From IMG/VR virus record IMGVR_UViG_3300022468_000344: a DNA stretch of 41,352 nt, one strand, 5' to 3'. The stretch is from a virus. The notes beneath the pieces were generated by a model. It saw only the letters and a list, made by a program, of their open reading frames with translations, ran no database searches and was not told the DNA's origin. Shown piece after piece: positions 21,849 to 41,352 of this stretch (positions are counted from its first letter, which is position 1; each line of letters begins with the position of its first letter). Made by a program: the position numbers and the translations under genes.

Positions 21849-22667
21849 TTATTTTGGCGCCGGTAATGCGCCGGGGTAATGCTTGGCAATAATCCGGTTT
21901 AATTGCTCAACCAAATCAAGCCTTGAGAAAGTAATGTGCGCGTTGTTATTCTTAAACCAACGGGCTTTAAAATAAGTAAATTCATGCTCGCCGCTAAACT
22001 TAGCGCGCGCCATGCGGGCAAGCTCGCCGCCGTCGGCTTTTCTATGGTCGGCAACCGTGCCGCCGTCCAGTATTGAAAACACCCGGCATAAATCATCTAT
22101 CTTGTCGCATGCCGAGTGATTGCCGCTATACGAACGCACCCAGCCAAGCACAATGCGCTTGCCAAACTTCTGCGGCATGTTGGTTTTGTATTCCCAGCTA
22201 AGGCCTTTAAACACATCAATAACGCCTTGCTCAAATATGTTTTGGCTATCGGCATGCAATTGGCCAAACGTGGCCTCAATCGTGCCACGCGATAAAACCG
22301 GCACTTTTTCATTGTCGTTATATAGCAAACCATCCCATTGGTTACGCATGGCGTTATTCATTAAGGTGCGCATGCCGCTTTCGTGCAATAGGTGTTTCCA
22401 GCCTGCTTTATCCACGCGCTGGGTTGCGCTTTCCAATCCAATATTTTTGCCGTTGTGCTTATCAAATAGCTTGTGCGAACCGTGGCGCCCATTAAGCCCA
22501 TTTACAAAATAATCAGCACAGCCATAAACTTTGTTGTCGTTAAAGTATTGCTGGCTTAACTCGTTAATTTCATCCCAAAGGTTTTGCATACTAGCTAGGC
22601 GCTCAATGATTGCCTCGCGTTTGTTTAGCAAATCGTCAACGCTTACGCTTTTTACTAACTGGCTCAA
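21849..22667 (-). CDS. DUF4942-like protein
   Basis: TTG start with AGGAGC SD 6 nt upstream. 272 aa. The C-terminal FKARWFKNNNAHITF...LNRII resembles DUF4942. Confidence 0.6.
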   Translation of the reverse strand: MSQLVKSVSVDDLLNKREAIIERLASMQNLWDEINELSQQYFNDNKVYGCADYFVNGLNGRHGSHKLFDKHNGKNIGLESATQRVDKAGWKHLLHESGMRTLMNNAMRNQWDGLLYNDNEKVPVLSRGTIEATFGQLHADSQNIFEQGVIDVFKGLSWEYKTNMPQKFGKRIVLGWVRSYSGNHSACDKIDDLCRVFSILDGGTVADHRKADGGELARMARAKFSGEHEFTYFKARWFKNNNAHITFSRLDLVEQLNRIIAKHYPGALPAPK

Positions 22668-24111: not shown

Positions 24112-25230
24112 TTATTTTTCAGGTGGCAACGCCATAAGCACCTCACTACTTGCCACCTCCCGGCGCTTGATATAGGTTTCAGTCATGCCCGCGTCGGTAT
24201 GCGCGGCCGCAACACTTAATTGCTCCATTGTATAGCCGGCCTTTTTGGCGTCCGTTAGCGACTTGGCGCGCAAATCCCTAAGCGTCGCGTTTACTATCCC
24301 GGCACGCTCGCACGCGCGCACCCATGCCGTGCCCACGCCGCGGGTGGCGTATGGCTTGCCGTCTAGCGAGTGGATAACGTACATGCTCTTAATCCGGCCA
24401 ATCGCCTTGGCGCGCTCCAAAACAGCTTGCACGGCCGGGCTTATTGGCACGTTGACATTGGCGCCGCTGGATTTTTCGGTTTTGGTTGGCTTAAATTTAA
24501 TAAAGCCGTCGCCAATATCCGACCATTTAAGCAACCGCACCTCGGTTGTGCGCTGATAAAGCAGGTAACACAAATCAACATAGCATTGCATCATTTCGCC
24601 GCTGGGCGTGCGCTTGCCGTCTTTGCCGATTAACAGGGCGTTGCGTATGGCGTGAAACTCCGCATGCTCAATGTAGCGGCTACGGCTGGCCGGCTTGTCA
24701 ACCTTTACCTCGCGGCAAGGGTTATCATTGCGCAAGCCCTTGCGGCATGCCCACGCGAAAAAATCAGATAAGCGCGAGCGGTAAACCTGAGCCGAGCGTT
24801 GCCCCTCCCATTGGTCAAGGAATTTGGCCACGTCCACGGGCATGATTTGCACAACATCAAAGTCACCGAAAGCCTCAGCCAGTATTTTGCATTTTCGGGT
24901 TATCTCTTTGCTTGCCTCGGCAAACATTTTGAGCCGGGCGGCGTCGGTTGGTTTTTCTTTGTCGCGTTTTTTGAGCACGCTGAGCCGGTAGGTTTCAATA
25001 TACGTTGTAAAATCGCCTCGGCCTGAGCCTTGCAAGTTGAGTTTGGTTATCTCGTTGACTAGCTCCCGCGCCTTAATCTCGCCCTCAGCAACCGCGCAAA
25101 GGGAGTGCCATTTTTGGCACTTTCCCGTCGCTGGGTTTTGTATCGCGTCGGCGCTGAAAAAGTAAAAGCGCTTTCCGCGTATGTAAATGCGCGAGTGCGT
25201 TAGCGTCTTATTATTGTGGCGTTTTCTCAT
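24112..25230 (-). CDS. int: Tyrosine integrase
   Basis: 372 aa. The C-terminal catalytic region has conserved R, H-x-x-R-like and terminal Y context (AAAHTDAGMTETYIKR). CTTAGGAGC SD. Confidence 0.9.
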   Translation of the reverse strand: MRKRHNNKTLTHSRIYIRGKRFYFFSADAIQNPATGKCQKWHSLCAVAEGEIKARELVNEITKLNLQGSGRGDFTTYIETYRLSVLKKRDKEKPTDAARLKMFAEASKEITRKCKILAEAFGDFDVVQIMPVDVAKFLDQWEGQRSAQVYRSRLSDFFAWACRKGLRNDNPCREVKVDKPASRSRYIEHAEFHAIRNALLIGKDGKRTPSGEMMQCYVDLCYLLYQRTTEVRLLKWSDIGDGFIKFKPTKTEKSSGANVNVPISPAVQAVLERAKAIGRIKSMYVIHSLDGKPYATRGVGTAWVRACERAGIVNATLRDLRAKSLTDAKKAGYTMEQLSVAAAHTDAGMTETYIKRREVASSEVLMALPPEK

Positions 25231-27676: not shown

Positions 27677-28423
27677 TTATATAAATAACGGTTGTTGCAC
27701 TTCGGTTTTTGTCCAAAAAACCGGGGCTTGGTGTTGCTCTATCCTTTCGCGCATAACCAGCGCTCGCACCTCTTTGCTAGCTGGCGTATAAGTGCCACGC
27801 CAAGCGCTATCAATCCCAACGTTTTGAGCAATGTTAGTGCTATCAACGCTGGAAAACGGGAACCGGGTAAAAACATCAGGGTTTAACATTCTAAGCCCGT
27901 GCAATTTTGTTAATGGCCGGCCGTCGCGGCCGCATACAATATTCATAACCTCTGCCATGCGTGCCCACCAACGAGCGTCGCCAATAGTTGCATAATCGCC
28001 GCTTGAGCCTATACAAATGCGTGGATATTCATACGCCAGCCTTTCCGCGCGCCCTAAGCTTTCATGTAAATGGTAAACCGGAGCGCCAACCCATTTATTT
28101 TTTGGCTCGCCCCAACTCCACTCAGCAAGCAAGGCGTCGTTGTCCTCCTCGGAGCCGTCTATAACGTCAGGTATCACGGCAAAATCAAAAGAGGGGTAAC
28201 GGTGCAACTCGGCAACCCATGCGTAATATTCCGACCAATCCGTTACAGGCTCGCCGCTTTTCCAAGAACTAAATGCGCCGTTATCAACGGCAAAGCTTTG
28301 GGCAACCTCCAAAACAACGCCAAGTTGGCACGGCGACCTAAAAGAAACAAACGCATGCCCTGCGCTTAATACTTTTGAGGCCGCACTTCCGGGCGTTATT
28401 GGCAAGCCGTGATAATGTATCAT
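27677..28423 (-). CDS. TGT-superfamily (DpdA-like DNA/tRNA-guanine transglycosylase) candidate
   Basis: 248 aa. AVDNGAFS (compare TGT DSGGFQ) and KLHGLRM...FSSVDSTNIAQNVG (compare TGT GxG...FDCVxPTRxARxG), with about 150 aa between the two Asp residues. Confidence 0.45.
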   Translation of the reverse strand: MIHYHGLPITPGSAASKVLSAGHAFVSFRSPCQLGVVLEVAQSFAVDNGAFSSWKSGEPVTDWSEYYAWVAELHRYPSFDFAVIPDVIDGSEEDNDALLAEWSWGEPKNKWVGAPVYHLHESLGRAERLAYEYPRICIGSSGDYATIGDARWWARMAEVMNIVCGRDGRPLTKLHGLRMLNPDVFTRFPFSSVDSTNIAQNVGIDSAWRGTYTPASKEVRALVMRERIEQHQAPVFWTKTEVQQPLFI

Positions 28424-28869
28424 TACGCCGCCTCGCCAAACTCAAGCTCGCGGTCGGCTGGCGCTAAGCTCACGTCTATCATTTCGTCTAAAAACTCGGC
28501 CAGCGTCGCAACAATTGCGCTTGTCGGTTTAAAGCTAATGCTAAATGTAAGGTCAACCATGCCGCCAGCCACCGCGGACGCCTTAAACTTCTTAACCGTT
28601 ACTCCGTAATACTCTTGCTCCATTAAAGTTAAAACGTAGCTTTTAAGCTCATAGCTAAAGCCCACGTCGTCCATTAACTTGTAACGCGGCTCGCCGTCCG
28701 GCAAAAACAAAAACTCACCCAGCCCGTCGCCAAAAAAAGTCAATATTTCCGAATTTACGCGCGACGTAAATTTGAGGTCAAGCGCAAGCTCCTTGTTGTT
28801 TTCGTCGCCCTCTTTGCGCGTATTGATATGCGCCAGCGTTGCTTTATTGTTAAATCTGAATTTCATCAT
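28423..28869 (-). CDS. Hypothetical 148-aa protein
   Basis: GAGGAGC SD. ATGA-type coupling to the downstream gene. No recognised motif. Confidence 0.7.
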   Translation of the reverse strand: MMKFRFNNKATLAHINTRKEGDENNKELALDLKFTSRVNSEILTFFGDGLGEFLFLPDGEPRYKLMDDVGFSYELKSYVLTLMEQEYYGVTVKKFKASAVAGGMVDLTFSISFKPTSAIVATLAEFLDEMIDVSLAPADRELEFGEAA

Positions 28870-28906: not shown

Positions 28907-29911
28907 TTATTCAATATTCATTGCAGGGCGCGCGCGTGGTGCACGTTGCGCTTGCGTTACTGGCGCCGCCTCGGCTTGCTCCATTTCGCCTAAAAAGTCG
29001 CTATTGTCTTGCATTTGATTGGTCGTTAAAACTTCCGAGTCAGGCTCAGGCATTACCTCCGGCGCGTCGGCCTCTTTAACCTCACGCTCGGCCGCTTTTG
29101 GCATTGCCGCTTCGGTAGCTGATTGCACGCGGCTGGCCTTGGCTGGCTTGGTAGGCTCGGCCGTGGCCACAAAGGCGCCGTCGTCGTCGCGCTCGGTTTC
29201 AATAATATCGTGCAACTCCTCAGCGGTTTGTAAGCCCATGAGCAAATCAGGCGCATGTAACTTGCCAAAAAAGCTTGTTGCGCGGTAATGCAACATAACC
29301 TCCGGCATGGTTTGCCATTTACTGCCGTTTTTGGTCAACCAGCCCTCGTCAATTGCCATTTGCATGCTGACAACCGGCCCGGTGATTTTCTCGCCGGTGG
29401 CCTTATCAAGCGCCCAAGCGTAGCAAGTGCGGTGCGTTACCTTAACCGTTTTGGTTTGCGTTTCCTTTTTACCGCTAACCCAAACAACGGCGTTATATGT
29501 TACGTCCTCAGTTTGCCCCGGCTCGCTAAGCTCAAAACGTAGCGGGGTAAAGCGGCCGCTCGCGTTGATACTGGCCGCAACAAACTGAGCGCTCCAAGCC
29601 GGGCGCCCCTCAACGATATAGAGGTTTTGCATAACCATGAGCACGTCGGCGCCTAGGCGTTGGCTCATGTTTAAGGCAATCACGCAATTTGGTATTGCGC
29701 TTGGGTTATCCTCGTAACCGGTAACTTTGCCATGGTCTTTAATCTCTTTTTGAGCGCGGTATTGCACCGGCACCAATGTGCTACTTGATAGCATTTTGGC
29801 CGCGCGTTGCATAAGCTCAAAGCTTTGCAGGCTACCAAAGCCGGGTTGTATAACTGGCATGTGCTCCTCGCGTGCGGGGATTTTTTCTCTTAATGTTTCA
29901 ATTGCTGACAT
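28907..29911 (-). CDS. recT: RecT-family single-strand annealing protein
   Basis: 334 aa. The core resembles RecT (NCVIALNMSQRLGADVLMVMQNLYIVEGRPAWSAQF). It is paired with an exonuclease gene. Confidence 0.8.
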   Translation of the reverse strand: MSAIETLREKIPAREEHMPVIQPGFGSLQSFELMQRAAKMLSSSTLVPVQYRAQKEIKDHGKVTGYEDNPSAIPNCVIALNMSQRLGADVLMVMQNLYIVEGRPAWSAQFVAASINASGRFTPLRFELSEPGQTEDVTYNAVVWVSGKKETQTKTVKVTHRTCYAWALDKATGEKITGPVVSMQMAIDEGWLTKNGSKWQTMPEVMLHYRATSFFGKLHAPDLLMGLQTAEELHDIIETERDDDGAFVATAEPTKPAKASRVQSATEAAMPKAAEREVKEADAPEVMPEPDSEVLTTNQMQDNSDFLGEMEQAEAAPVTQAQRAPRARPAMNIE

Positions 29912-29920
29912 GATTAGCTC

Positions 29921-30862
29921 CTAAGCTTTAATTAAAAACGGACGGGCGCCCGCTTTGTGTTTTGTGAATTGTTGATAAATTGCAGGGTGTGCGGCTTTAA
30001 ATGCGTCCTTATCAAACGCCTCGCCGTCTTTGTTGTTTTTCCATGTGGCCAACAACTTGCCGCCAAAGTAAAGCTCCTCAGCGTCGGCCATGATTGCTTT
30101 AAGCTGGCTTTCGGCGGTTGCCTTGGCATCCTCGGCGGCCTTTAACGTCAAGCGGCAATTAACAAGCTGGCTATACAGCGCCAAGGTTGTATCGTCGGCC
30201 TCAATCGCTTTGCCCTTGGTAGCGCGGCGGTAAATAAGCTCGGCGTCGCCCACGTTTACAGGTGCCGGCAATTCCTTGTTTGCTACGCTTTGCCAAACCT
30301 TGCCGCACTCATAAACCATGTACTCTATTAACTCCTCGTTGCGAGGGATAACGTAAATATCAATCGGCACCGTGCCCTTGGTTAAGAATTGCACCAAGGC
30401 GGCCTCGTTAACAAAGCAAATTGGTATATCGGCTTGTTGCGCGCCAGTGATTGCCATTTGCGCCATGCATTGCCATAAGCGCTCAACCGGCACTTGGTCG
30501 GTGCCCGGCTCACCCCAGCGGCTACGGTCAAACACGCTAAACGCTTTTGCCTCAACAACGCGCGGGGCGTCAAATTGCGCCAGCCCGTCAAGGTGGCAAC
30601 CCAACCAAGGTAAAGCCGGGTGCAACATAGTATCGGGCGAGCGGATAAGCGATTGTGGCTTGGTTTCGCGCTCGTATGCGTCCAGTATCGGCGCCTCAAG
30701 TATGTTGCCAAGTTGCACACTGGGCACGTCGTCAAGGTTTGGCGCCTCAATCTCGCCCAGCTTTTGCAAGGCAACCTCAACACCTTTGCCCGTCATAATG
30801 TATGCGGCGTCGCTGGCAAATATGCCGGCATTGCGGCGTTGCTTTTGTTGTTCGGTAATCAT
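29921..30862 (-). CDS. YqaJ-like (lambda Exo-type PD-(D/E)xK) recombination exonuclease
   Basis: 313 aa. GNILEAPILDAYE...HLDGL...VVEAKA motif order is typical of YqaJ. It lies upstream of recT. Confidence 0.8.
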   Translation of the reverse strand: MITEQQKQRRNAGIFASDAAYIMTGKGVEVALQKLGEIEAPNLDDVPSVQLGNILEAPILDAYERETKPQSLIRSPDTMLHPALPWLGCHLDGLAQFDAPRVVEAKAFSVFDRSRWGEPGTDQVPVERLWQCMAQMAITGAQQADIPICFVNEAALVQFLTKGTVPIDIYVIPRNEELIEYMVYECGKVWQSVANKELPAPVNVGDAELIYRRATKGKAIEADDTTLALYSQLVNCRLTLKAAEDAKATAESQLKAIMADAEELYFGGKLLATWKNNKDGEAFDKDAFKAAHPAIYQQFTKHKAGARPFLIKA

Positions 30863-36005: not shown

Positions 36006-36530
36006 ATGACGACCGTAAAAAAGCCGTCAAAAGACGGCAAAAAAAAACTAACACCAAAACAAACTCTTTTTGTAAAAGAGTATTTGATTGACTTAAACGC
36101 TACGCAAGCCGCTATACGTGCTGGTTACAGCGAAAAAACGGCCAAAGAAATTGCGGCCGAAAACCTCACAAAACCTAACATTGCCGAGGCAATACAAGCC
36201 GGCATGGCTGAGCGCTCAAAACGCACCGAGATAACCGCAGATTATGTGCTTAACACAATCGTTGAAACGATAGAGCGTTGCAAGCAAGAGATTGAGCCGG
36301 TTTATGAGGGGCGCGGCGACGACCGGCGCTTTACTGGCGAGTTTACGTTTGACAGTGGTGCCGTGCTTAAAGGGTGCGAGTTGCTAGGCAAACATTTGAA
36401 ATTATTTACCGACAAGTTAGAGCTTGGCGGCAAAAACGGCGGGCCAATACAAACCGTTAGCGCGGTTACAAACGACCCCATAGAGGCCGCAAAAGTTTAT
36501 CAAAAGCTTATGGGCGGCGGTAAAGCTTAA
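36006..36530 (+). CDS. terS: Terminase small subunit
   Basis: [45 protein letters not shown] is the classic Terminase_2-type N-terminus. Confidence 0.9.
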
Positions 36531-36532
36531 CA

Positions 36533-38122
36533 ATGCCAATTCCATTTAAGTTTGATTTTAAAAACCCTGACTATGTGCAGGTTTTTGAGTGGCGCATTTC
36601 CAAGCTACAAGAGATTAGACAAAACCCCGAAGTTTTGCCGTTTTTGTTTCAGTATTACAAGGCCAATCCAGCCCAATTTATTATTGATTGGGGCATGACG
36701 TTTGACCCTCGCAACGTTGAGCGCAAGTTGCCGGCAAGTATTCCATTTCTGCTTTTCCCAAAACAGGAGGAGTGGATTATTTGGTTTATGGAGCGCTGGC
36801 AAACCCAAGAGCCGGGCATTACCGAGAAAACCCGCGACATGGGCATGAGTTGGCTAACGGTTGCGTTAGCAAGCACGGTTTGCCTTTTCAACGAGGGCGT
36901 GGCCGTAGGCTTTGGCTCCCGCAAAGAGGAGTACGTGGACAAGATAGGCTCGCCAAAATCGTTATTTTGGAAAGCCCGCATGTTTGTTGATTTGCTCCCG
37001 CCTGAGTTTAAGGGTGATTGGGATATTAACAAGCACGCCCCGCACATGCGGATTGTTTTCCCCGGCACTGGCTCAGTGATTACCGGCGAAAGCGGCGACG
37101 GCATAGGCCGCGGCGACCGGGCCAGCTTTTACATTGTTGACGAAAGCGCATTTTTGGAGCGCCCGCAATTAGTGGACGCCTCCCTATCCGCAACAACCAA
37201 TTGCCGCCAAGACATAAGCACGCCAAACGGCATGGGCAACCCATTTGCCCAAAGGCGCCACAGCGGCAAGGTTAAGGTTTTTACATTCCATTGGCGTGAC
37301 GACCCGCGCAAAGATGATGCTTGGTACAACAAGCAAGTCAACGAGCTTGACCCGGTAACAGTAGCCCAAGAGATTGATATTAACTACTCGGCCTCGGTTG
37401 AGGGCGTATTGATACCGTCCGCTTGGGTGCAATCTGCAATCGGCGCGCATACCAAGCTAGGTATTGAGCCAACAGGCAAACGACGCGGCGCTTTGGACGT
37501 TGCCGACGAGGGCGTTGATAAAAACGCATTTGCTGGCCGTCATGGCATTTTGCTGGACTTCTTACAGTCATGGTCGGGCAAAGGTGGCGACATTTACAGC
37601 ACCGTTGTTAAGACTTTTAACATTTGCGACGAGCGCAATTATGCAACGTTTGACTATGACGCTGACGGACTAGGCGCCGGTGTACGTGGCGACGCTAGGG
37701 TGATAAGTGAAGCGCGACAAGATGCAGGTAAAAGCCGCATTTATGACGCACCGTTTAGAGGCTCCGGCCCCGTGCACGACCCCGACGGCGAAATGGTCAA
37801 GGAGCGGAAAAACAAAGATTACTTTGCTAACGCCAAGGCTCAGGCATGGTGGGCGCTACGCATGCGCTTTCAAGCGACGCACCGGGCAGTTGTTGAGGGC
37901 ATGGACGTTGACCCTGACACAATTATTTCAATCGCCCCGGATTTGCCGGAGTTGTCATTGCTGATTATGGAGTTGTCGCAACCAACTTACGCAATCAATC
38001 AAGTTGGCAAAATTGTGGTTGATAAAGCGCCGGACGGCACCAAATCGCCAAACCTAGCCGACGCCGTAATGATTTGTTACCAGCCGGCCTCAAACTCAAT
38101 TGACGTTTGGGAGCATTTGTAA
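36533..38122 (+). CDS. terL: Terminase large subunit
   Basis: 529 aa, directly after terS. It has ATPase-like and nuclease-like halves, including the acidic motif FYIVDESAF. Confidence 0.85.
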
Positions 38123-38136
38123 ACTAGGACTTTTTA

Positions 38137-38277
38137 ATGAGCAAGTTAATGTATAAGCGCGTTGTTGGCGACGTAGGATTTAAAGACGCCGAGCACTGGA
38201 TTACATTACACCCAAATGGTAAAGGCAACGGCAAGGGAACGCCGGCACGGGTGGCAAGCTCAACGGTAAAGTTGTAA
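38137..38277 (+). CDS. 5' fragment (46 aa) of a split gene
   Basis: AGGAC SD 8 nt before ATG 38137. MSKLMYKRVVGDVGFKDAEHWITLHPNGKGNGKG..., stopping at 38275-77. Confidence 0.45.
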   Translation: MSKLMYKRVVGDVGFKDAEHWITLHPNGKGNGKGTPARVASSTVKL

Positions 38278-39629
38278 GCCCTAAAAGCAAAAGCGGTGAA
38301 CGTCGCGGCACTGAAAGCCAGCACGCCCCGGCAATATGGCTTGGCCCTGCTAAGCCTGAGCCAAAAACAAGCGCCTCAGCAGGTGCCGGAGCTACCGCAC
38401 CCGCGACAGCGCCAAAGCCAGTCACGGCACCGACGCCAGCACCAACGGCGCCAACAGTAGCGCCAGCAACCGCACCGGCACCAAGCGACGTTAACCCATA
38501 CGTTAAAGGCTCAAAGGAAAGTTACGAATTTGAGCGAGCAAAAAAGCTTGAGTTGACCAAAAAGGCCAACGAGCTAAGCGAAACAGCAAACACGCTTGAG
38601 GAGCACAAAGCCGCAATGGCGGCGCACCTTGCCGCCCATATCTCATGGAGCGCGTGGAAACAAGCGAGGCCAAAAGAGTTAACCAATCATGCCGCTGGTT
38701 ATCATGCGCATAAAAACATAATTGCAAAGCTTGAGAAAGCGGCCAAAAAAAGCCAGCCACGTAAGAAAAAAGAGGCGCCGGCCGGCCGCTCATTTGCTGA
38801 CGATACACCGGACAGCATACATGCCAAACTCAGTGAAAGCTGGGGGCTTGGATTTGCTAACGGAGTAAAGCAGGGCAAGGCAACCGAGTATTACCGCCAG
38901 CAAATACTGAGAGAGAAAAGCTCAGACCCCGCGGAAATGAAAAAGCGGCTTGAGGAGTATAACCGCCTGCAAGAGCTTGAGAGGAAAGACCCCGGCCACC
39001 GGTTGCGCGGCCATACCTCAATTGATATTACGCAAAAAACTGCCTCAGCAAAAGCAATGCGCGAAATGGTAACGCACGTTGATAACGCAATGGCAACGCT
39101 TCAAGCCTCCGGGTTTGATGTTAAAAAAGCATTAAGCAAGGCAAACGTTAAGCTTGTTGCTGGCTCAACCGGCGCGGCCAACGGCCATGCTTGGGGCGGC
39201 AATGCACTTGGCGGTAGAGGAAACGACGGTTACTTTTCTATAAGCCCGTCAAAGCGCGGCTCGTTTAACGATGAGCAATCGCAACGCCATGAGGCAAGAA
39301 TTGCCGCCGGGCAATCTCGCTGGTCGGTTTCATCCTCAGCCAAAGACCAAACAAGGGCAACCATTGTGCACGAATTAGCGCACGCGCTTGGTTTACGTGA
39401 AAACGTCAAGTCAACCGAGCGGTTGGTTAAGGTAATGGACGAGGTTTTGCCGGACAAAAGCAAGCGCCGTGAGTGGATAAGGCAAAACATAAGCGAGTAC
39501 GCGACAACCAACATAAATGAATTTGATGCGGAGTTAGCCGCAATGGTGACAGACCCGGATTACAAGCGCGGTACGTTGCCGGAGCAATTGGAGGCTCATG
39601 TTGACTGGCTTTTTGAGAAAGTAAAGTAA
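38223..39629 (+). CDS. HExxH (ImmA/IrrE-like zincin) protein; frame open from 38223 with no start before TTG 38553
   Basis: The -1 frame relative to 38137..38277 is open for 330 nt upstream of the listed start. That stretch encodes GGKLNGKVV and an Ala/Pro/Thr linker. HELAH lies at 39369-83, with a downstream NEFDAELAA. Confidence 0.6.
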   Translation, partial: RQRQGNAGTGGKLNGKVVSPKSKSGERRGTESQHAPAIWLGPAKPEPKTSASAGAGATAPATAPKPVTAPTPAPTAPTVAPATAPAPSDVNPYVKGSKESYEFERAKKLELTKKANELSETANTLEEHKAAMAAHLAAHISWSAWKQARPKELTNHAAGYHAHKNIIAKLEKAAKKSQPRKKKEAPAGRSFADDTPDSIHAKLSESWGLGFANGVKQGKATEYYRQQILREKSSDPAEMKKRLEEYNRLQELERKDPGHRLRGHTSIDITQKTASAKAMREMVTHVDNAMATLQASGFDVKKALSKANVKLVAGSTGAANGHAWGGNALGGRGNDGYFSISPSKRGSFNDEQSQRHEARIAAGQSRWSVSSSAKDQTRATIVHELAHALGLRENVKSTERLVKVMDEVLPDKSKRREWIRQNISEYATTNINEFDAELAAMVTDPDYKRGTLPEQLEAHVDWLFEKVK

Positions 39630-39823
39630 TGTTACCTATTCCAAAAGACCCAAATTTTAGAACGCCGGAAGTTAGCGACGAGGAGTTTTACAACCCCGCA
39701 CGCGAGGAGGACGAAACCCTTATCGCTACGGGGGCGTTTGACGACGACATGAGCAAAGGCGAGTTATTGCAAACAGCTTTAAACGACGTGAGGGCTTTAA
39801 CAGAAAAGCTCAAAAACAGATAA
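39629..39823 (+). CDS. Hypothetical acidic 64-aa protein
   Basis: TAATG coupling to the upstream gene. Confidence 0.65.
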   Translation: MLPIPKDPNFRTPEVSDEEFYNPAREEDETLIATGAFDDDMSKGELLQTALNDVRALTEKLKNR

Positions 39824-39837
39824 ACAAGGATTTTTAA

Positions 39838-41292
39838 ATGAGCACTCAGACAACCGACGCAGGCGGCAAAACTATTGTGGCCAAGGTGGCCGATAGTTTC
39901 CAAAACCTGCTTGCGCGGGTGGGCTTGGGTACGCAAAACCAAAACAGCGCCAGCCAATACGGCTTTTCGCCAATCAGCCGCAACCGCATACAACTTGAGT
40001 TTGCTTACCGCTCAAGCTGGATTGCCGGCAAAAGCGTTGACGCTTTCGCGGACGATATGACGCGCGAGGGCGTAACCGTCCAGTGCGACATTGAGCCTGA
40101 CCAATTGGAGCAACTGGAAAAGGCCGCGGGCAAGCTCAAGCTATGGGATGCGGTCAACGATACCGTTAAATGGTCGCGCTTGTATGGCGGCGCTATTGCG
40201 GTAATGCTGATTGACGGCCAAAACCCTAGCACCCCGCTACGCAAAGACACGATACAAAAAGACCAATTCAAGGGCTTGCTAGTGCTTGACCGCTGGATGA
40301 TACAACCCAGCCTTGAGGACTTGGTGACAGACTACGGCCCCGACTTGGGCATGCCTAAGTTTTACACAATACTGGCCGACGCTAAGGCGCTGGTTAACCA
40401 AAAGATACATTACAGCCGCGTACTACGCCTTGACGGCGTGGAGTTGCCTTACTGGCAACGTATTGCTGAGAACGGCTGGGGGCAATCAGTGCTTGAGCGC
40501 TTGTGGGATAGGCTGGTTGCATTTGACAGCACCACCGACGGCGCGGCGCAATTGGTTTACAAAGCGCACTTACGCACTTACAAGGTAAAAGGCTTGCGCC
40601 AAATTATCGGCGCGGGTGGCAAAGCGTTTGACGGCTTGATTGCACAAATTGACGCTATCCGGCAATTCCAAAGCAACGAGGGCTTAACCCTCATGGACGC
40701 CGAGGACGATTTCCAAACGCACCAATACAGTTTCACCGGCCTAAACGACGTGCTTTTACAGTTTGGCCAGCAACTAAGCGGTGCAATTGACATTCCCTTG
40801 GTGCGCTTGTTTGGGCAAAGCCCGGCTGGTTTAAATGCTACCGGTGAAAGCGACTTGCGCAATTACTACGACAGCATTAAGCAACAGCAAGAGCGTAAAT
40901 TGCGCACCGCGGTTGAAACCATTTACGGCGTGTTATACCGCTCAACGTTTGGCGACGCACCGCCTGACAACATGGCGATTATGTTTAACCCGTTATGGCA
41001 AGTTAGCGACACAGAAAAAGCAACCATTGCCAACTCGGTAACGGACGCGGTGACCAAGGCCAGCGATAGTGGATTGATTGACAGACACACAGCGCTTAAA
41101 GAGTTGCGCCAATCCAGCGGCGTAACCGGTGTGTTTAGCAACATTACCGACGAGGATATTAAAGAGGCCGAAAACGAGCCGCCGCCCGACTTTAACGAGG
41201 TAGGCAATGAGGGCGAGGACTTAGACAATGAAACGAACCCGCAACCCGGTACAGGCGAGGCGAGCCGAGAGGATTTACAGCCAGCAACTTAG
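39838..41292 (+). CDS. Portal protein (DUF1073-like)
   Basis: 484 aa, with an AAGGA SD. SWIAGKSVDAFADDMTREG...WSRLYGGAIAVMLIDG resembles DUF1073 portals. It lies between the terminase and Mu F-like genes. Confidence 0.85.
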   Translation: MSTQTTDAGGKTIVAKVADSFQNLLARVGLGTQNQNSASQYGFSPISRNRIQLEFAYRSSWIAGKSVDAFADDMTREGVTVQCDIEPDQLEQLEKAAGKLKLWDAVNDTVKWSRLYGGAIAVMLIDGQNPSTPLRKDTIQKDQFKGLLVLDRWMIQPSLEDLVTDYGPDLGMPKFYTILADAKALVNQKIHYSRVLRLDGVELPYWQRIAENGWGQSVLERLWDRLVAFDSTTDGAAQLVYKAHLRTYKVKGLRQIIGAGGKAFDGLIAQIDAIRQFQSNEGLTLMDAEDDFQTHQYSFTGLNDVLLQFGQQLSGAIDIPLVRLFGQSPAGLNATGESDLRNYYDSIKQQQERKLRTAVETIYGVLYRSTFGDAPPDNMAIMFNPLWQVSDTEKATIANSVTDAVTKASDSGLIDRHTALKELRQSSGVTGVFSNITDEDIKEAENEPPPDFNEVGNEGEDLDNETNPQPGTGEASREDLQPAT

Positions 41293-41352
41293 CCGGCTGG
41301 CCAAGCAAATTGGCCAAATCATTACCGGCTACAAACCAACGGACTTAAACGA
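41228..41352 (+). CDS. 5' part of the Mu F-like head morphogenesis gene (continues at nt 56 via the junction)
   Basis: GAGGA SD 8 nt before ATG 41228. MKRTRNPVQARRAERIYSQQLSRLAKQIGQIITGYKPTDLN, with no stop to the window end, in frame with 3..650. Confidence 0.8.
   Translation, partial: MKRTRNPVQARRAERIYSQQLSRLAKQIGQIITGYKPTDLN
41298..41352. repeat. Terminal overlap copy 2 (identical to 1-55)
   Basis: 55/55 identity. Confidence 0.95.

Follow-up and report, generated by a model that had tools for sequence, protein, structure and literature searches.

A solitary DpdA homologue, a putative compact DNA-guanine transglycosylase, in an uncultured temperate phage

The dpdA-like gene and its family

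The virus record IMGVR_UViG_3300022468_000344 of IMG/VR was analysed as one stretch of 41,352 nucleotides (nt), here called the window, in which a dpdA-like gene occupies positions 27677-28423. A first-pass annotation, made from the letters alone, had proposed at this site a 248-amino-acid (aa) member of the tRNA-guanine transglycosylase (TGT) superfamily related to phage DpdA, which inserts preQ0-type bases into DNA. The open reading frame (ORF) is real and lies on the minus strand, which that annotation had left unstated. DpdA is regarded as the signature protein of 7-deazaguanine DNA modification. Our analysis makes it very probable that the product belongs to the phage DpdA family, and we favour, at a probability of roughly 0.6, the reading that it is a solitary ("DpdA-only") phage DpdA, i.e. 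a compact TIM-barrel DNA-guanine transglycosylase.

The window begins and ends with the same 55 bp, and this exact terminal overlap shows that the phage genome, of ~41.3 kb, is complete and circular (or circularly permuted). The phage is temperate. Its minus-strand early block, which also encodes a single-stranded DNA-binding protein, reads leftward in the order exonuclease, RecT, orf148, dpdA, SbcC-like ATPase and integrase (Table 1). The G+C content of dpdA (50.1%) is close to that of the whole genome (50.9%). The TAATG junction in front of the gene, together with its GAGG element, suggests that dpdA may be co-transcribed and translationally coupled within a leftward early operon.

Table 1. 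Features of the window and, in the last eight rows, pathway-type genes next to dpdA homologues in related loci
Feature	Position	Strand	Remarks
dpdA-like coding sequence, 248 aa + stop	27677..28423	minus	ATG-to-stop ORF; homologue of DNA-guanine transglycosylases, predicted compact (beta/alpha)8 barrel
D47-N-G-A-F51	28271..28285	minus	D47 codon 28283-28285; strand 43-47 ends at D47; aligns with CAjan LDSGAFS
D86-V-I-D89	28157..28168	minus	just after strand 79-83; candidate base-recognition Asp
H118	28070..28072	minus	end of strand 116-118; aligns with His of CAjan PCFHFGED
G139-S140-S141-G142	27998..28009	minus	loop after strand 135-139; aligns with CAjan G-G-M-V
H175-G-L177 (KLHGLRM motif)	27893..27901	minus	strand 173-176; aligns with CAjan KLHAFGI
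D194-S195	27839..27844	minus	D194 codon 27842-27844; strand 192-195; aligns with CAjan SCDSSS
TAATG junction	28421..28425	minus	stop of the upstream 148-aa ORF overlaps dpdA start by 1 base; GAGG ~9-12 nt upstream
orf148	28423-28869	minus	putatively coupled to dpdA through the TAATG overlap
RecT	28907-29911	minus	early block
YqaJ/RecE-like exonuclease	29921-30862	minus	early block
SbcC/SMC-like ATPase, 585 aa	25822-27579	minus	downstream of dpdA; PHROG 77, AAA_23/SMC_N
Tyrosine integrase	24112-25230	minus	early block
DUF4942 methyltransferase-like protein	21849-22667	minus	Pfam E=2.4e-47; PHROG 6263 "DNA methyltransferase" E=4.5e-18
Structural block	36006-41292 and 75-20336	plus	small terminase, portal, Mu-F-like protein, major capsid, baseplate, contractile-tail and lysis genes
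Terminal overlap, 55 bp	1-55 = 41298-41352		exact
QueD-like gene	L022:9675-10004		PF01242 confirmed
QueD-like gene	L041:225-689		PF01242 confirmed
QueD-like gene	L030:10732-11103		
QueD-like gene	L025:1332-1745		
Vut_1/YhhQ-family transporter gene	L012:6720-7193		Acinetobacter phage AB3P2; PF02592 confirmed
Vut_1/YhhQ-family transporter gene	L036:9361-9849		PF02592 confirmed
Vut_1/YhhQ-family transporter gene	L029:1078-1545		PF02592 confirmed
Vut_1/YhhQ-family transporter gene	L031:2151-2630		

The proposed homology to DpdA was borne out by several comparisons. The product matched PHROG 887, named "queuine tRNA-ribosyltransferase", at E=2e-67. This family is also matched by the DpdAs of phages CAjan (8e-96), 7-11 (7e-74) and BTP1 (1.7e-102), whereas E. 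coli TGT matched neither it nor any other PHROG. Its name therefore covers phage DNA transglycosylases and not tRNA TGTs; carried into GenBank phage annotations, it is misleading. CAjan DpdA, the deletion of whose gene abolishes 2'-deoxy-preQ0 (dPreQ0) in CAjan DNA (PMC6884629), was matched by the window protein in BLASTP (E=8e-10) with both Asp motifs in register, at an overall identity of only 26%, and phage 7-11 DpdA showed 34% identity (E=2e-34). By hhalign, a profile of 53 diverse representatives (32-68% identity to the query) matched CAjan DpdA over residues 23-206 with a probability of 98.9% (E=2e-17). The family comprises 5,104 clusters at 90% identity and 836 at 50%, with a typical length of ~250 aa. 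Thousands of homologous clusters and the invariant residues described below place the motif match beyond chance.

Searches of other collections were empty. The window protein matched nothing in Pfam (no family at E<=10), NCBIfam or PADLOC. Sequence searches of the PDB, whether started from the protein alone or from either of two family profiles, returned only spurious GCN4 coiled coils (E~0.3). The DpdAs of CAjan, 7-11, BTP1 and AB3P2 are likewise without a Pfam match, and that of CAjan is also without a PDB sequence match. Since the validated CAjan enzyme is equally invisible to Pfam and PDB, these empty searches are uninformative and do not argue against membership.

Within the family, the closest known counterparts are the DpdAs of phages 7-11, BTP1, SPN3UB, SfI, HK106 and Athena1, which share a length of ~235-250 aa, the PHROG 887 match and the lack of a phage-borne preQ0 pathway; besides the 34% to 7-11, identities are ~53% to BTP1/SPN3UB, ~51% to SfI and 47% to Athena1. 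All of these belong to "group 3: DpdA only" of Hutinet et al. 2019, who noted a separate similarity cluster made up of the singleton DpdAs from gamma-proteobacterial phages (PMC6884629). Hence, the DpdA reading of the first-pass annotation was right but not new, as homologues in BTP1, SPN3UB, SfI and Athena1 had already been catalogued as DpdA-only. In temperate members the gene occupies, as shown for BTP1, an early accessory region near int/xis, the BTP1 gene lying between ead/Ea22-like and eaA genes upstream of xis-int. The window copy differs in residing in an uncultured contractile-tail temperate phage, in having betaproteobacterial prophages rather than enterobacterial or vibrio phages as nearest relatives, and in its neighbours, orf148 and the SbcC-like ATPase. 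It is thus a betaproteobacterial-type addition to the catalogued DpdA-only group and not a new kind of system.

Predicted fold and active site

An AlphaFold (AF2) model based on the alignment of the 53 representatives (predicted local distance difference test, pLDDT, 94.9; predicted TM-score, pTM, 0.91) has eight strands alternating with helices and predicts a complete TIM barrel within 248 residues, in line with the shortened, TIM-barrel-sized protein proposed originally. An earlier AlphaFold run with 45 sequences at ~70% identity reached a pLDDT of only 63 and was discarded. Residue conservation was counted over the same representatives. D47, H175, D194 and S195 are present in all 53, D86 and H118 in 52 each, and an aromatic residue (F/Y/W) occupies position 51 in 52; G139 (51/53), G176 and L177 (47/53 each), S140 (43/53), S141 (42/53), G142 (38/53) and D89 (31/53) follow. 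The conserved residues all map at or just after strand C-termini in the model. In a TIM barrel these strand ends form the catalytic face.

Possible roles can be assigned by comparison with bacterial DpdA, in which Asp95 acts as general acid/base and Asp256 as nucleophile, Asp130 and His181 recognize the base, and Phe99 and Leu236 stack on it, the catalytic Asp roles being backed by mutagenesis (PMC10164549). By analogy, D47 in the AVDNGAFS motif would be the general acid/base and F51 the base-stacking aromatic residue. D194, which is located within FSSVDSTNIAQNVG, is the predicted nucleophile, by comparison with Asp256 in the bacterial enzyme and with Asp280 in Zymomonas mobilis TGT. H118 is the putative equivalent of His181, and L177, in the KLHGLRM motif (residues 173-179), that of Leu236. 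The GSSG loop is expected to touch the 7-substituent of the base that enters. The register of the recognition Asp is ambiguous: in MAFFT and BLAST alignments the CAjan Asp falls opposite D89, yet the conserved Asp of the family is D86, and 7-11 has G at position 89. Both Asp residues that the first-pass annotation had picked as catalytic, D47 and D194, thus align with DpdA motifs and are invariant, while the third conserved Asp (D86) and H118 had escaped it.

CAjan DpdA (DpdA1; Queuovirinae) shares the D..GAFS, H, KLH and DSS motifs as well as the absence of a Pfam TGT match and of a zinc site. It differs in its length (306 aa, with N- and C-terminal extensions), in its substrate loop (GGMV instead of GSSG), and in its setting, since dpdA lies beside FolE, QueD, QueC, QueE and a YhhQ-like gene and dPreQ0 reaches ~32% of G. 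The window protein is predicted to share the chemistry of the bacterial DpdA of S. Montevideo (PDB 7UI4), which belongs to the Dpd restriction-modification system and combines a TIM barrel with a general-acid Asp, a nucleophile Asp, a recognition Asp and His and a stacking aromatic residue (PMC10164549). The bacterial enzyme is larger, however; it contains DpdA-specific insertions and a structural zinc site, and it depends on a ParB-like ATPase, DpdB. The window protein has no zinc site, no match to the bacterial Dpd models of NCBIfam or PADLOC and no conserved ATPase partner. No ParB-like gene was found in the window, the downstream ATPase being SbcC/SMC-like.

The relationship to TGT is less direct. 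Foldseek retrieved TIM barrels only from the PDB, the best being tryptophan synthase alpha (E=2.5e-4). The archaeosine TGT 1j2b_A and the Z. mobilis TGT 4hvx ranked 9th-10th (E~1.3-1.6e-3, query TM-score, TMq, 0.48-0.53), and bacterial DpdA 7UI4 was not among the top 50 matches. As TGTs rank behind generic TIM barrels, the fold alone does not single out TGT. A fold search of the viral models in BFVD returned at its top mostly phage proteins annotated as queuine tRNA-ribosyltransferase, plus uncharacterized proteins, and its matches included singleton DpdAs of mycobacteriophages and a rudivirus. Structure comparison therefore supported the TIM barrel and the kinship with phage DpdA models without setting TGT apart. 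Profile comparison gave a similar picture: of the two families to which the first-pass annotation had likened the protein, DpdA was matched (PHROG 887, CAjan hhalign) but TGT was not. PF01702, which E. coli TGT matches at 2.8e-168, did not match the window protein, and hhalign of the family profile against the single E. coli TGT sequence gave a probability of 0.4%. The proposed link to the TGT superfamily consequently holds through DpdA homology and the published DpdA-TGT relationship, not through a direct TGT match.

These data bear on another explanation, that the protein is a miniature tRNA-guanine transglycosylase that alters the queuosine status of host or phage tRNA. The names given in the PHROG 887 entry and in phage records of GenBank would fit this idea, as would the high rank, in the PDB fold search, of two structures of TGT, itself a TIM-barrel base-exchange enzyme (TMq ~0.5, E~1e-3). 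However, the lack of a PF01702 match and the exclusion of E. coli TGT from PHROG 887 and all other PHROGs speak against it, and the protein is ~130 residues shorter than TGT and lacks the zinc-binding subdomain: it has three Cys only (32, 137, 164), no CxCxxC...H motif and 54 residues after D194. CAjan DpdA is also without the zinc motif. Moreover, validated PHROG 887 members act on DNA, as seen from the CAjan deletion and from expression of the 9g enzyme (PMC6884629), and 9g DpdA does not need the host TGT for its activity. We therefore consider a tRNA-directed enzyme very improbable and expect DNA, not tRNA, as the substrate.

Source and identity of the base

The initial annotation had noted that queC, queD, queE and folE are missing and had deduced that the precursor would have to come from the host. 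Both points hold for the complete circular genome. It encodes no homologue of FolE, QueD, QueE, QueC, QueF or YhhQ; in phmmer --max searches of all six-frame ORFs, neither CAjan FolE, QueD, QueC, QueE and YhhQ nor closer QueD and Vut_1 queries produced a match with E below 0.3, and Pfam scans of 51 ORFs detected no 7-deazaguanine pathway gene. Since the complete genome lacks the pathway, any 7-deazaguanine must be supplied by the host, and the phage fits group 3 of Hutinet et al. and not groups 1-2. Such a supply is feasible, because 9g DpdA alone placed dPreQ0 at 0.03-0.3% of plasmid G in E. coli (PMC6884629), and nt-1 DpdA2 alone yielded ~900-1,600 dPreQ0 per 10^6 nt of plasmid DNA in the same host but none in a queD mutant (PMC10516641). 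The nearest homologues (60-75% identity) reside in prophage regions of Cupriavidus, Burkholderia, Paraburkholderia, Janthinobacterium, Dechloromonas and a Nitrosomonas metagenome-assembled genome, and the host is probably a betaproteobacterium.

The genomic context of the relatives, surveyed at 35 loci that carry a short DpdA homologue, ties the clade to 7-deazaguanine metabolism by an independent route. In 8/35 loci a gene for a QueD/PTPS protein or a Vut_1/YhhQ-family transporter directly adjoins the homologue (Table 1); the window itself contains neither of them. In some of the eight pairs the start and stop codons overlap, making them minimal two-gene modules of DpdA plus one pathway gene. 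In the relatives the homologue is found in the variable early region of integrase-bearing prophages.

On the reading that we favour, dpdA would be transcribed with the leftward early genes, from exonuclease to integrase, after infection or induction. The enzyme would flip a guanine out of double-stranded DNA and, with D47 as the putative general acid/base, release it and insert a free 7-deazaguanine base, preQ0 or a close derivative, drawn from the queuosine pathway of the host. The outcome would be a low-level or motif-specific phage DNA modification of the dPreQ0 or 7-amido-7-deazaguanine (dADG) type that may blunt restriction. Modification by 7-deazaguanines shields phages from restriction enzymes and Cas9, and it exposes them to modification-dependent defences such as GrwAB and Dag1. 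That a host-derived 7-deazaguanine is inserted into DNA in vivo appears on balance probable to us; we hold with less confidence that the base is specifically preQ0.

Several points weigh against this reading. Apart from the missing direct sequence link to TGT and a PDB fold search that leaves TGT undistinguished among TIM barrels, no member of the short clade has been biochemically shown to act on DNA, and the preQ0 pathway of the presumed host is assumed. Hutinet et al. 2019 themselves raised a possible functional divergence of singleton DpdAs (PMC6884629). Only two group-3 phages were assayed in that study: Salmonella phage 7-11 contained 50 dADG per 10^6 nt, ~0.02% of G, and Mycobacterium phage Orion, whose host is without preQ0, had no modification (PMC6884629). 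A dense, restriction-blocking modification is therefore not assured, and we found no later paper that tests the short clade. Finally, the GGMV loop is not present in the window protein.

The low level in 7-11 and the absence of modification in Orion would also be expected if the protein were a diverged and largely inactive relic, or had been repurposed as a DNA-binding or glycosylase-like accessory protein, leaving phage DNA without detectable modification. The position of the gene in a variable accessory (ea-like) region by the integrase, with no conserved partner, is compatible with such a fate, and degenerate family members exist. One of them, P0206, keeps D47, H175 and D194 but has LDGDLS for LDNGAF, lacks PDVIDG, and has N for H118 and IATVSS for IGSSG; these replacements may mark a copy in decay or put to another use. 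On the other hand, the predicted catalytic residues are invariant over the 53 representatives, which points to purifying selection on catalysis, the Orion result is explained by its host, and the recurrent adjacency of QueD- or YhhQ-type genes indicates that the clade uses 7-deazaguanine bases. We thus regard an inactive or repurposed window protein as quite unlikely.

The divergent loop, by contrast, bears on the choice of substrate and not on family membership. In bacterial DpdA, G206-G207-M208-V209 form the preQ0-selective loop, which binds the cyano group and excludes preQ1; the pocket, in TGT as in bacterial DpdA, is narrowed by the fourth-position Val, whose loss in eukaryotic TGT makes room for queuine (PMC10164549). 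Where CAjan has GGMV, the window protein has GSSG, conserved in the clade, so that the inserted base is uncertain and may differ from preQ0 in the clade as a whole. A non-preQ0 substrate may also fit the dADG found in 7-11. It is conceivable, though rather unlikely in our estimation, that the protein is an active base-exchange enzyme of the DpdA family with a more open, polar GSSG pocket that places 7-amido-7-deazaguanine (ADG), 7-carboxy-7-deazaguanine (CDG), preQ1 or a bulkier base into DNA. Besides the conserved replacement of the loop and the missing pocket-restricting Val, as in eukaryotic TGT (PMC10164549), this alternative draws on 7-11, the only assayed relative, which has dADG and not dPreQ0, and on VH7D DpdA2, which is promiscuous for preQ1, preQ0 and CDG (PMC10516641). 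Yet the equivalence of the loops comes from sequence alignment with CAjan and motif identity, not from structural superposition; the dADG of 7-11 could be preQ0 hydrated after insertion, as by bacterial DpdC; and all DpdA1-type enzymes tested to date use preQ0 (PMC10516641). The broader proposal that the short clade, with its more than 5,000 clusters at 90% identity, inserts a non-preQ0 base (for example ADG as such, CDG, preQ1 or a bulkier base obtained by salvage) at few, specific positions is in our view unlikely. If true, temperate phages would widely carry an epigenetic mark that depends on host metabolites, and not a bulk armour against restriction.

A solitary DpdA that uses a host-derived base thus remains the preferred reading. 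Solitary DpdAs greatly outnumber the other forms, and almost nothing has been measured for them. If such enzymes do tap host queuosine precursors, a large share of the temperate phages that infect Proteobacteria would bear a DNA mark that depends on the host. The copy described here adds a betaproteobacterial example, the QueD/YhhQ adjacency in its relatives and a divergent substrate loop, and leaves the overall picture unchanged. What solitary DpdAs do in temperate phages is a real question, for which relatives in culture, such as BTP1, SfI and HK106, are more suitable subjects than the present metagenomic phage.

Neighbouring genes and genome setting

The immediate neighbours of dpdA in the window are not conserved partners. 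The product of orf148 has no Pfam or PHROG match and no homologue in the 35 related loci (0/35); it is an orphan, a predicted ORF of no assignable family, and was rejected as a partner of DpdA. The SbcC/SMC-like ATPase recurs in 1/35 loci, a Paraburkholderia tuberum prophage locus (L021) that also has RecT and RusA in common with the window. As it goes with the RecT/exonuclease recombination module, we rejected it as a DpdB-like partner, and it is probably part of that module.

A second candidate DNA-modification gene, encoding the DUF4942 methyltransferase-like protein, is situated in the same early region as dpdA. In the relatives, a DNA methylase gene often stands beside the dpdA homologue (L004, L006/L007, L041).

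When 15 kb of the window were compared with the phages in GenBank by megablast, no match and hence no near relative emerged. Pfam scans of the 51 ORFs revealed only virion, lysis, recombination, replication and integration functions. The plus-strand structural module resembles those of E217/Pam3/KPP10-type contractile-tail phages (Baseplate_J, E217_GP41, Pam3_gp18, Phage_cement, KPP10_Orf10), and it is joined to a lambdoid-style early region with RecT, exonuclease, RusA and integrase.

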